A stretch of DNA of 64,000 bases from the NCBI RefSeq assembly GCF_045037415.1, contig NZ_CP173438.1; one strand, given 5' to 3'. Source of the stretch: Escherichia coli. GTDB lineage: Bacteria > Pseudomonadota > Gammaproteobacteria > Enterobacterales > Enterobacteriaceae. Shown in pieces: positions 22,959 to 27,742 of this stretch. The position numbers are program-made. The number at the start of each line of letters is the position of its first letter. The stretch's first letter is position 1.

Positions 22959-25900
22959 TAAGTTCGCTAAAAAACAGAACGGGGCCAAAAGGTCCCGTTT
23001 TTTTCGCCTTTATTTAGGAAAAGTGTCCAGAGGGGGCGAGGGTTATCGGGGAGTATAATTTCGCCATTCAGCAAGAATGGAAAGAATAATGCAAAGCGGA
23101 AAATGGATTTTGACCTCGCTGGTAATGACTTTTTTTGGCATCCCCATACTGGCGCAATTTTTGGCAGCGGTTGTTGCCATGCTGGGGGCCGGGCTTGCCG
23201 CTATTCTTGAGGTTTGCAATTTACTCTTTACGCCAACAATTTATCTTCTACTCAACGTCTTTATGCTGACGCTGGGGGCGATAATCATATTTTTCTCTGG
23301 TCGCGTGTGGGCTGGTGATAGCGCACCAGAAAAAAGAGAAATAGCCGCCTGGCGACAATGCTTTTTTCTCTTACCCGCGCTATTAACCCTGGTTGGCTGG
23401 ATAATCGCGCTACATCTGGCAGATTATCAATTTCGCCAGATGGGATCGGGCTGGTTGGCAAACCTTATGCTTTCCTGGCAGGGTGTTTTGTTACTCTCAT
23501 TAATCAGTGGCGACTACTGGTGGATAGTCATTATACCCGTTGGCGCGCATATCAGTTTTTCGCTGGGATACGGCTGGCCGACAAGGCATCCTTTAACCGG
23601 CACGTCCGGGCTACGTTGCCGTAACTTACTCCTGTTTCTACTTCTCTTACTTGGTTTTGTCGCTGGGTATCAGGCTTATTTATATAAACAGCTTAATCCC
23701 GGTGTCGGTGTGCGTGAAAATATTGATACCTGGGCCTGGCGACCCGATAAACTTAATAATCAACTGACGCCACTGCGTGGTAAACCACAAATTCAATTTA
23801 CGCAAAACTGGCCGCGACTCGATGGCGCTACGGCGGCGTACCCCATTTATGCCTCTGCATTTTATGCATTAAGTGTAATACCAGAGGATTTTCACGTTTG
23901 GGATTATCTGGATAACTCTCGTACGCAAGAAGCATATAACAAAATCGTTAACGGTGATGCCGATATTATTTTCGTGGCGCAACCTTCCGATGGGCAAAAA
24001 AAACGCGCTGAGAAATCGGGCGTCACTTTGCTGTACACGCCATTTGCCCGTGAAGCGTTTGTTTTCATCGTCAATGCGGATAATCCGGTTAATTCCCTGA
24101 CTGAACAACAGGTGCGTGACATTTTCAGTGGCGCAATTACCAACTGGCGCGCGGTTGGCGGTGACGATCAGGAGATCCAGACCTGGCAACGCCCGGAAGA
24201 CTCTGGCAGCCAGACGGTGATGCTATCGCAGGTCATGAAAAATGTCCGCATGATCTCGCCGCAGGAAACGGAAGTGGCAAGCGTGATGGAGGGAATGATT
24301 AACGTTGTTGCCGAATACCGTAATACAAAAAACGCAATAGGCTACACCTTCCGCTATTACGCAACACAAATGAATGCCGATAAAAATATAAAACTGCTAG
24401 CGATTAACGGTATTGCACCGACTGCGGAAAATATTCGCAACGACAAATATCCCTATATCGTCGATGCCTTAATGGTAACGCGGGAAAATACGACGTCAGA
24501 GACACAAAAATTGGTGGAGTGGTTTTTAACGCCGCAGGGGCAGAGTTTGGTGGAAGATGTGGGCTATGTGCCGATGGATAAAACGTTGCATTAAGCAGGA
24601 TTACAATATGGATATCATTAATATTTTCCTGAACGCGGCGAATGCCCTTTTTATCTATCAGCCGTTTATGCACGATCAGCGGGCGAGGGGGTAATTATGC
24701 ACCCCACTCCTGCCATGCAGGCATTAATTGAGCAGATATATCATATTTTTCGTCGTTATCCGGCGCCGCAGCAATTTGTGGTTTGTTGTGAATATTGTCT
24801 GAGTCAACAGGAACAAAAAGCATTACGGAATACATCGTTGCGAGCGATTCCTTATTCCTTAATCAATGCCTGGAATAGTAGTCCAGGACCTGATCCGCAA
24901 AACAGCGATGAGGTTCGTTATTTTCTGCCTTGTTTACTGGAGTTTGTTGCGCAGGGGCAATTTGACAATATTCACGAAGTATTTTCTCTACGGCGTATCA
25001 ACCTTGCCAGTAAAGAAAACTGGCGTGAGGATGAACGGGAAATATTGCAGCAATTTGCTTGCCAGTATATGACTGATTGGGTATCCGGGGATGAGGCTGT
25101 CGAATTACAGTACAAGCTGGAAATGTTTTTCCGTGCCGATATCGCTCTTTCGCCATTGCTTGATGCCATTATTTCAGTTCCCGGATTTTGGTCGGCAGCG
25201 TCTCTTGCCTGTTTATTGAATACGTATCGTGACGGTTATATCAGAGATAATCAGGACGATATCGATAAAGCCATTACCACTCAAACTAATACTTGGGCTA
25301 GTAATAATCAATCCATCCTGAAAGAACGCGCGCGGCAGGCGATTGAGAATCCGCTTAAGCAGTCCGAACAGGGCACACAGTATCAGGCCTGGGAAGACGA
25401 GTGGATGATTGATGAGTGTTTATGTGCCATGTATGACGCATCATCCGAATCATCAGGACATTAAAGATGAATAAAATCAGACTTTATATTTACCCTGTAA
25501 TTTTCGGTTTTGTTATCGTACCATTATTGGTATGGCCGACGGTTATTGCCTTAGCCGTACTTATATTCACGTTAACTTTTCTGGCTGAAATAATATTCTC
25601 CTTTCCGCTCCTGGTTGTGCGTATTTCTCTTCAGGAATTACAACTTGAGTTATTGGTTGAATATGCACTTTTTTTCAGTGTAATGGGTGGCATCGGTTGG
25701 CAATTCTCCCGCAGAACGCCTCCTGAATTAAAAAACAGGCTACATTGCTGGCTGGTTTTTTCTCCGGTCTATTTCTGGTTAATTCTCTCGAATTTCATTC
25801 TTTATATTTCTCCAGAGAAATCAGCGTTGCTGGAAAATATCCGAAATTTCTTTCTGACATTTGTCTGGCTTCCCCTGAATTTTTCCCCTTTTTGGCCGCA

Positions 25901-27742
25901 GCCGTGGACTGATTTTGTCGGCCCGATTAGTGCCCAGCTTGGTTTTGCGTTGGGATATTATTGCCAGTGGCGTAGCAAAAATAGAAGCCATAGGAAGAAG
26001 TGGGGCGATTGGGTAACGTGCTTAAGTTTGGCGATTTTAGCTCTGGGGCCGTTATTCAATTATTTACAATGAATAGTCTAAGGAATTCAAATAGCCCGGT
26101 TGCACTTCGCAACCGGGCATCATCCTTACGACGCCAGCGACAACCTCTGCTGCGTATATTCCATCAGCCACTGACTCACACGAGATTGTTGATCCGCATT
26201 TAGCCACATGCCTTGTTTCGTGCGACGCCACAGGGCATCGTCGGCGCGGCGGACCCATTCGTGGTCGACCAGATATTTCAGCTCCGCTTCGTAGAACTCA
26301 TGACCGAAATCTTCACCGAGGTCGCTTATCGCCCCTGCATTGCCGAGCAACAGTTCGCTGTTGCTGCCGTAAGTGCGCGCGTAGTGACGTGCCAGCGATT
26401 CGGTCAGGAACGGGTAACGGCGGCGCAGGCGGGCGGCGTAATCGTCACGGTCACCTTCAATGGCACCACCCGGCAGCACGCTCTCTTTCGTCCACGCCGG
26501 ACCAATGCCCTGATAATATGGCGTCAGTTTTTCCAGCGCGTGCTCCGCCAGTTTGCGGTAGGTGGTCAGCTTACCGCCGAATACCGACAGCAGCGGGGCT
26601 TTGCCGTTTTCATCATGGATATCAAGGGTGTAATCACGGGTAATGGCCTGCGGCGAGTCGGACTCATCATCACATAGCGGACGCACGCCGGAGTAGGTCC
26701 AGACGATATCGTCCCGGCTTAACTGCTTTTTAAAGTGCGTGTTATACACTTTCAACAGGTAATTGATTTCACTCTCTTCAATCTTCACTGCTTTTGGATC
26801 GCCTTTGTATTCCACATCGGTGGTGCCGATGATGGAAAACTCGTCCATCCACGGGATCACGAAGACAATACGTTTATCTTCGTTTTGCAGAATGTAGGCT
26901 TGCTTCTGGGTATGCACACGCGGCACCACAATATGGCTGCCTTTGATCAGGCGAATGCCATAAGGCGAAGGCAGATGCATCCCGTCGTCGAAAAATTGTT
27001 TCACCCACGGGCCGGTAGCATTAACCAGGCCGCGCGCCTGCCATGTATATTTTTTGCCGGTATCGATATCTTCCGCTTCCACAATCCACAGGCCGTTTTC
27101 GCGGCGAGCAGACGTGGCACGAGTACGAGTAAGCACTTCACCGCCTTTACGTACCACCATCTGGGCGTTGGCGAGTACCAGACGGGCGTCGTCTACCCAA
27201 CAGTCAGAATATTCGAATCCGCGCTTAATTTCCGGTTTTAACACTGAGTTTGCGCCAAAACGCAAACCGGTTGATCCCGGCAGGCTGGTGCGCTTGCCCA
27301 GATGATCGTACATAAACAGACCAATGCGAATCATCCACGCCGGGCGTAGATGCGGACGATGCGGCAGGCGAAAACGCATCGGGAAGGCGATATGCGGGGC
27401 CATTTTCAGTAGCACTTCACGTTCAGCCAGCGCCTCGCTGACCAGTCGGAATTCATAGTGCTCAAGGTAGCGCAGGCCACCGTGAATGAGTTTTGAACTG
27501 GCGGAAGAGGTCGCGCAAGCGAGATCCTGCGCCTCCAGCATCAGCACGGATAAACCGCGTCCAGCGGCGTCTGCCGCGATACCAGCACCATTGATGCCGC
27601 CACCTATCACAATCAGATCTTTGGTTTCCATGCTGCCCTCATTCACTTTCGTTAAAGTTCATAAATGTTCGTTATCGAACATATTAGCAAAGAATCGCGC
27701 TTTGGGTAACATTGAAAAAACATTTTAGAGTGATATGTATAA

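Follow-up and report, generated by a model that had tools for sequence, protein, structure and literature searches.

Two genes downstream of yzgL in Escherichia coli: a stand-alone duplicate of the YzgL membrane domain and a member of a large unnamed protein family with a branch in RNA-repair operons

In a 64,000-nt stretch of an Escherichia coli chromosome (assembly GCF_045037415.1, contig NZ_CP173438.1; hereafter, the window), two adjacent genes encoding proteins of 255 and 201 amino acids (aa) lie downstream of yzgL, between glgP and glpD. Our best explanation, which is tentative and which we rate somewhat short of an even chance, is a composite one: the two genes would be part of a mosaic operon headed by yzgL, the 201-aa gene being a duplicate of a YzgL domain and the 255-aa gene a putative RNA-damage-response cargo gene, and they would not constitute a two-partner system. 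The structural statements in this explanation are far more secure than the functional ones. Our comparisons show that the 201-aa gene duplicates the membrane domain of YzgL as a gene of its own, and that one deep branch of the 255-aa family is hard-wired into RNA-repair operons and has been fused once to RlaP.

The yzgL-headed unit and the membrane-domain duplicate

The glgP-glpD interval of the window contains the first four of the following features and no other gene:

23077..24594, + strand: yzgL, full-length (505 aa) open reading frame (ORF); first gene of the operon-like unit.
24608..24694, + strand: 28-codon ORF, MDIINIFLNAANALFIYQPFMHDQRARG; remnant of a 236-aa 'YbbD family' gene, from alignment with loci L002 and L003 (L numbers designate the compared loci).
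24697..25464, + strand: gene of a 255-aa acidic (pI 4.6), cytoplasmic, all-alpha protein, from the ORF, the family profile and an AlphaFold2 (AF2) model.
25467..26072, + strand: gene of a 201-aa inner-membrane protein with about six helices, from the ORF; paralog of the N-terminal membrane domain of YzgL.
26094..26118, no strand: GC-rich hairpin with an 11-bp stem, likely a shared terminator, from a consensus scan only.

YzgL combines a polytopic N-terminal membrane domain (approximately residues 1-205) with a periplasmic PBP_like_2/PstS-like domain; hydrophobic segments are present, the NCBIfam model TIGR02136 matches residues 279-500, and RefSeq names it a 'PstS family' protein. Close homologs of the 201-aa protein are limited to Escherichia, where its alleles are 65-75% identical. 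A 169-aa ortholog from Superficieibacter shows 32% identity to the window protein (E 9e-28) and, by BLASTP, aligns over its full length with residues 1-161 of its own YzgL (28% identity, E 9e-7). Additionally, hhalign comparison of the 201-aa family with the YzgL membrane-domain family gave a probability of 97.3% (E 1.7e-11 over 163 columns), and hidden Markov models (HMMs) of the 201-aa and YzgL families matched each other's members reciprocally. The AF2 model of the 201-aa protein, which is of moderate confidence (predicted local distance difference test, pLDDT, 70.7) and served the paralogy check only, matched in AFDB50, by Foldseek, nothing but YzgL-type proteins from Salmonella and E. coli that are labelled 'PstS family'. 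The 201-aa protein is thus homologous over its full length to the membrane domain of a protein encoded in the same operon, and differs from it in having no PBP_like_2 domain, since NCBIfam and Pfam scans found no periplasmic binding protein (PBP) domain in it.

The O157:H7 strain F6667 (L104, 3553-5147) shows a related arrangement, in which yzgL is followed by a second PstS-family gene (330 aa) and a 200-aa membrane gene, with no 255-aa gene. The 330-aa PBP shows 58% identity to the YzgL binding domain and its stop codon overlaps the start of the 200-aa membrane paralog, so that the two genes look like a split and permuted second yzgL. Based on this arrangement and on the paralogy to YzgL, the membrane gene belongs with yzgL-type genes and not with the 255-aa gene. 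In our composite explanation, the 201-aa protein would most likely work in the inner membrane with YzgL-type membrane-anchored PstS-like binding proteins, a pairing that we infer, and its coupling to whatever gene precedes it would be positional. No pstCAB-type permease or ATPase genes lie beside yzgL at the window locus, which is not a Pst transporter.

A first-pass annotation, made from the sequence alone, had described two ORFs here: an AT-rich pair of accessory genes without recognisable domain or annotated function, for a soluble protein with two cysteine motifs and a polytopic membrane protein. This description held throughout. Both ORFs are present on the + strand (255 aa at 24697-25464, 201 aa at 25467-26072), with a 2-nt gap, the ATG of the second starting 3 nt past the last base of the first gene's stop codon. 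The cysteine motifs VVCCEYC and DECLC occupy residues 28-34 and 239-243 of the 255-aa protein, which is free of hydrophobic segments; several occur in the 201-aa protein, for which AF2 models six long helices. Neither protein matched any model in NCBIfam, PADLOC, Pfam or PHROGs, and literature searches on yzgL/YbbD and on accession numbers found nothing relevant. The GC content and third-position GC content (GC3) are 0.447 and 0.418 in the 255-aa gene and 0.411 and 0.431 in the 201-aa gene, compared with 0.512 and 0.616 in glgP and 0.550 and 0.612 in glpD (GC3 of 0.42-0.43 against approximately 0.61); yzgL lies between the two groups (0.476 and 0.496). No housekeeping annotation was found, nor typical GC content together with broad conservation. 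Across alleles, the ratio of nonsynonymous to synonymous substitution rates (dN/dS) ranged from 0.15 to 0.26 in the 255-aa gene and from 0.17 to 0.39 in the 201-aa gene, against 0.01-0.06 in most comparisons of glgP and glpD; based on these values, both are real, fast-evolving genes under purifying but relaxed selection.

The hairpin at 26094-26118 sits in the 53-nt gap that separates the 201-aa gene from the convergent glpD, and the consensus scan, the only method used for terminators, found no convincing one inside the unit from yzgL to the 201-aa gene.

The family of the 255-aa protein and its RNA-repair branch

A word-indexed search with the 255-aa protein recovered only Escherichia, Shigella and a few enterobacterial relatives, and alleles within E. 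coli are 81-88% identical. A profile search of 1.84 billion cluster representatives identified 798 proteins at E<=1e-3, 197 of them at E<=1e-10; these represent clusters at 50% identity, derive from many phyla and are nearly all about 240-270 aa long. An alignment of 40 diverse members showed conservation of Y15, F18, E72, E113 and W200, a cluster of three cysteines (CxxCC, or CCxxC in Escherichia) and the motif K/R-H/Y-F-L-P-R-x-L-E-L, the C-terminal DECLCAM motif being confined to the enterobacterial clade. Members are acidic, the median pI being about 5. For the window protein, AF2 gave a confident, all-alpha model (pLDDT 90.1; predicted template modelling score, pTM, 0.90). A Foldseek search of AFDB50 with this model gave 151 matches, nearly all labelled uncharacterized, in Proteobacteria, Bacteroidota, Firmicutes, Actinobacteria, Deinococcus and Chloroflexi. 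None of the 40 diverse members matched any Pfam family, Imm families included, at E<=0.001, and the family profile found nothing among the PDB sequences. The 255-aa gene was thereby shown to belong to a big unnamed family with a confidently predicted fold of its own, which is missing from Pfam, NCBIfam and PDB. That the 255-aa protein might be a paralog of the 236-aa 'YbbD family' protein was considered and rejected (BLASTP E of only 0.03).

Gene context was analysed in 80 metagenomic loci fetched with the motif KHFLPRxLEL, in which ORFs were called and neighbours clustered. RNA-repair enzymes were the only neighbours of the family genes to recur. The family gene of L083, L090 and L097 overlaps the stop codon of Hen1 by 4 nt and is followed, 6-10 nt later, by a full-length 859-aa Pnkp (in L097, the contig ends within the Hen1 ORF). 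The same Hen1-X-Pnkp order, where X is the 255-family gene, was found in L066 and L095, both flanking ORFs being cut by contig ends. The L083 proteins were identified with NCBIfam as Hen1 (TIGR04074, E 6e-223) and Pnkp (TIGR04075, E 0), and those of L066, L090, L095 and L097 were assigned by clustering with them. Other arrangements include X-RlaP-Pnkp in L073 and, in L098, RtcB-X with two RlaP-like genes and a RavA-like ATPase behind it; on an Asticcacaulis plasmid, a family gene is located 4 kb from Hen1-Pnkp. L070 (4095-5771; metagenome contig Ga0209375_1001686) encodes a natural 558-aa fusion of a 255-family domain (residues 8-231, E 7e-35) to RlaP (residues 267-504, PF10127, E 1e-44). The RNA-repair branch keeps the family motifs and aligns with the 255-aa protein over about 195-212 columns, that is, most of its length.

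Two further observations concern these contigs. The region 479-12964 of L083 (metagenome contig Ga0224558_1002681) is a large RNA-repair operon, which also encodes an SPFH/HflK-like protein, an RtcB-family ligase, RtcA, two RlaP-type proteins, a CCA-adding enzyme, a DEDDh exonuclease and a 140-aa protein. In L069, a contig related to L070, the fusion gene is split into ORFs of 345 and 205 aa, probably by a frameshift.

Pnkp and Hen1 have been reported always to share an operon and to repair tRNA cut by ribotoxins, and the Pnkp-Hen1 and Pnkp1-Rnl-Hen1 complexes were reconstituted without a 255-type protein (PMC4411300). RlaP adds one or two nucleotides to the 3' ends of damaged RNA (PMC12776372). 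Neither of these two papers mentions a 255-family protein.

In our composite explanation, the 255-aa protein, present as a solitary copy, would take part in the response to RNA damage (tRNA or rRNA) by ribotoxins, as a cofactor that binds proteins or as a protective factor. This putative role is drawn from the branch that is translationally coupled in RNA-repair operons and from the RlaP fusion; that the E. coli clade shares the role of this branch, and that the protein acts by binding other proteins, we infer. The nearest known kind of protein would be the accessory or cofactor proteins of RNA-repair operons, to which, by gene neighbourhood, only the remote homologs can be assigned. These resemble such cofactors in being coupled to Hen1 and Pnkp, in adjoining RtcB and RlaP, and in the RlaP fusion, and they share their length and motifs with the E. 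coli protein; the E. coli locus differs in having no RNA-repair gene and in its low identity to that branch. The 'syntax' of bacterial RNA-repair operons (Pnkp-Hen1, RtcB-RtcA, RlaP) was reportedly described by Burroughs and Aravind in 2016.

Several observations weigh against extending the role of the RNA-repair branch to the window. Sampling with KHFLPRxLEL enriches this branch, and most family members are solitary among unrelated genes. In a rough neighbour-joining tree, the family has two deep divisions, one of which includes all of the RNA-repair-linked members and the other the enterobacterial clade, and identity between the enterobacterial clade and the RNA-repair branch is 16-20%. No RNA-repair gene adjoins a family gene in any enterobacterial locus examined, the window included. 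The window lacks rtcR-rtcBA altogether (29798-30607): glpR ends at 29797 and malT (30608-33313, - strand) follows about 800 bp on. In other E. coli, rtcR adjoins glpR, and rtcR-rtcBA lies between glpR and malT in K-12-like strains, O157:H7 and N47. Finally, the window allele of the 255-aa protein may be impaired, as it carries an R79C substitution in the FLPR motif (TGT at 24931-24933). The proximity of rtcBA in E. coli was also considered as meaningful in itself; it was rejected, the rtc operon being missing from both the window and Pseudocitrobacter.

A broader version of the RNA-repair explanation appears unlikely to us. It takes the whole 255-aa family as an undescribed RNA-repair component with a new fold, which would partner Pnkp/Hen1, RtcB and RlaP as a cofactor, as a regulator or in neutralising ribotoxins; solitary copies, that of E. 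coli included, would protect the RNAs of translation against ribonucleases of colicins, of contact-dependent inhibition (CDI) systems or triggered by phages, and the yzgL slot would be an exchange site for conflict genes.

An alternative that overlaps our composite explanation in spirit is orphan immunity, in which the 255-aa protein, with the upstream YbbD-like protein, would neutralise incoming nucleases of Rhs, CDI or colicin type, the locus being an immunity island. It predicts binding of toxins and not help in repair, and we consider it doubtful. Immunity proteins of polymorphic toxin systems were reportedly surveyed by Zhang et al. in 2012. The 255-aa protein is similar to such proteins in being small, acidic and soluble, in its patchy distribution over phyla, in its variable loci and in the strong divergence of the E. 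coli alleles (81-88% for the 255-aa protein, 65-75% for the 201-aa protein). Tandem paralogs are also known: in L011/L012, an enterobacterial metagenome contig, genes of 262 and 261 aa stand alone between an aldo-keto reductase gene and ampC (8001-9586). Unidirectional arrays of small ORFs surround the members in L024, L052, L077 and L087, and the Superficieibacter locus has taken up a Mokosh-like helicase. When 105 other same-strand neighbours from about 60 loci were compared with Pfam, the set proved heterogeneous, with one Imm5, one DUF1877 and one MepB-like protein. Nevertheless, no toxin family was found among these neighbours, a limited sample, and no toxin/immunity family recurs in them; no toxin gene adjoins the family gene in any locus examined, no member of the 40 matched an Imm or SUKH-type family, and the recurrent partners are the RNA-repair enzymes alone. 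The large upstream ORFs that were checked encode a type IX secretion system (T9SS) adhesin-like protein (L038), a tetratricopeptide-repeat (TPR) protein (L091) and a protein without NCBIfam match (L052), and the neighbours of plasmid-borne members are partition, transposase and toxin-antitoxin (TA) genes.

Two observations on YbbD are in favour of the same alternative. K-12 ybbD (L023, 6641-7131) and the 3' end of the Rhs orphan ylbH overlap, and a true YbbD-type gene precedes the family gene in L008, where it encodes a 142-aa lipoprotein (1843-2271); true YbbD proteins are small and exported or lipoprotein-like. The E. coli 236-aa protein, however, resembles YbbD over only about 45 N-terminal profile positions, and it was rejected on this basis as a true YbbD, that is, as an Rhs-linked immunity candidate. 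Its partial NCBIfam match suggests either a chimeric model or past cassette recombination. No HMM match was found between the 236-aa protein and the RlaP-type neighbours of the RNA-repair loci, and a relationship to these was likewise rejected.

The polymorphic glgP-glpD slot and the ST131-type allele

The glgP-glpD interval is polymorphic in E. coli. At least 80% of the two-gene region is covered in 2944 of the 5426 complete E. coli genomes, as expected from the accessory character assigned to it by the first-pass annotation, and some match is present in 3905. The region is always chromosomal and nearly always single copy (median of 1 match per genome). The window allele is of the sequence type 131 (ST131) type, with 548 genomes at >=99% identity; carriers of the genes include ST131, Nissle 1917 and the type strain. 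A profile search of genome contigs with a narrow alignment retrieved 5 enterobacterial loci only. An origin from phages or plasmids was rejected: the sole 'plasmid' match in E. coli was a 4.8-Mb chromosome filed as a plasmid, the family motif gave no match in IMG/VR, and none was found in phage records.

In L002 (strain 025542-1), the order is yzgL, the 236-aa 'YbbD family' gene, the 255-aa gene and the 201-aa gene, with spacers of 2-14 nt. In the B2 variant L003, a fimbrial operon is followed by the 236-, 255- and 201-aa genes and yzgL is missing, while the slot of L004 holds the fimbrial operon and nothing else; in K-12-like strains, a remnant of yzgL is all that is left. Some relatives carry IS1 insertions. 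In Pseudocitrobacter, the slot contains a 176-aa gene, yzgL, a YbbD-like gene and a 248-aa homolog of the 255-aa protein, without membrane gene. In Superficieibacter, it contains yzgL, a YbbD-like gene, a gene for a 935-aa helicase, a second YbbD-like gene, a 255-type gene of about 260 aa and the 169-aa membrane gene. The helicase (strain 1612_C1, L019, 4456-7263) belongs to superfamily 1 (SF1) and matches Mokosh MkoA/MkoC in PADLOC (E 3e-44); its insertion here, between two YbbD-like copies, indicates that defence-type cargo can enter the slot. In our composite explanation, the 255-aa and 201-aa ORFs would be the last two genes of the accessory operon that yzgL heads in this slot, and the 255-aa gene would be cargo in its variable middle.

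The first-pass annotation had also taken the low GC content as a sign of horizontal acquisition. The atypical composition stands, but old residence, with repeated loss and exchange of cassettes, is a better fit than a recent import, given that the slot is common to Escherichia, Pseudocitrobacter and Superficieibacter and that a yzgL remnant is left in K-12. On the downstream flank, dS for glpD (26126-27631) between the window and strain 025542-1 is 0.23, a value that seems high for an E. coli core gene by general knowledge, no genome-wide baseline having been computed, and that hints at recombination around the variable slot reaching into glpD.

The same comparisons bear on whether the operon acts as one device. 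In a four-gene membrane system, a complex of YzgL and its paralog would sense or transport a periplasmic ligand, and the YbbD-like and 255-aa proteins would be its cytoplasmic partners. The 2-14-nt spacers and the lack of an internal terminator are consistent with it, as are the order yzgL/YbbD-like/255/membrane common to E. coli and Superficieibacter, the retention of yzgL/YbbD-like/255 in Pseudocitrobacter and the similar dN/dS of all the genes. We nevertheless hold it to be quite improbable. The middle of the operon is exchangeable, with a PBP in O157:H7, another YbbD-type lipoprotein in L008 and no YbbD-like gene in the window, and B2 strains place the three downstream genes behind a fimbrial operon with yzgL missing. 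Moreover, 255-family members elsewhere are never near YzgL or the membrane paralog: among about 70 metagenomic family loci, neither was found near the family gene.

The first-pass annotation had further proposed that the two genes could form a toxin/immunity or abortive infection (Abi) pair. In such a pair, the membrane protein would be the effector (or immunity protein) and the soluble protein its partner. As in type II TA and Abi modules, two tightly coupled small genes (2-nt gap) occupy an AT-rich, variably present accessory locus, here in a soluble-plus-membrane layout. The reading is, however, unsupported, because the 255-aa and 201-aa genes are not co-inherited: Pseudocitrobacter and L011/L012 have 255-type genes but no membrane gene, and in the O157:H7 genome L104 the membrane gene persists although the soluble one is missing, a situation that speaks against an obligatory antidote. 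The membrane gene duplicates a domain of its neighbour YzgL, the genes were not found on phages or true plasmids, and neither a known toxin or antitoxin domain nor a DNA-binding antitoxin was recognised, PADLOC, Pfam and PHROGs giving no match. We judge such a pair very improbable. Since defining features of TA/Abi modules and of polymorphic-toxin immunity genes were looked for and not found, the locus cannot be filed under either.

The window allele itself is peculiar at position 79 of the 255-aa protein and in the gene upstream of it. Arg is present at position 79 in at least 90% of the family and in 45 of 45 other cluster representatives. Matches to an exact 61-mer place the TGT codon in 546 genomes of E. 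coli, of ST131 type, and its CGT (Arg79) counterpart in 391, including Nissle 1917 and ATCC 11775. In addition, the 236-aa gene, which elsewhere lies between yzgL and the 255-aa gene, has lost about 625 bp in frame; the remnant at 24608-24694 consists of its start and last ~21 codons, and its stop codon is 2 nt before the 255-aa start. As the deletion keeps the stop in this position, translational coupling of the remnant to the 255-aa gene may survive. The R79C substitution and the in-frame loss of the upstream gene together suggest relaxed function in the ST131 lineage, although both ORFs are intact. A stronger version, compatible with the other explanations, is that the module is no longer functional there. 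The fixation of R79C in 546 genomes while 391 related ones keep Arg, the upstream deletion, the IS1 insertions in some relatives and the complete loss of the locus in K-12 and others are consistent with such decay. It is, however, decidedly unlikely in our estimate: neither ORF has a frameshift or premature stop, the upstream deletion preserves both the frame and the stop-start junction, and the identity of the allele over hundreds of genomes reflects clonality, not decay.

Implications for RNA repair and for the yzgL locus

More than half of the sequenced E. coli carry these genes, yet no database names them. What had been a 'hypothetical pair' now becomes two separate, testable statements, one on the 255-aa family and the other on the YzgL paralog. 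The stand-alone membrane-domain paralog provides a handle on YzgL as a membrane-anchored binding protein, and the natural Arg79 and Cys79 alleles are available as comparison material. If the RNA-repair link stops short of E. coli, the locus would be an ordinary mosaic accessory island. For the family as a whole, the genomic wiring to Pnkp/Hen1, RtcB and RlaP points to a missing player in RNA repair or ribotoxin defence.

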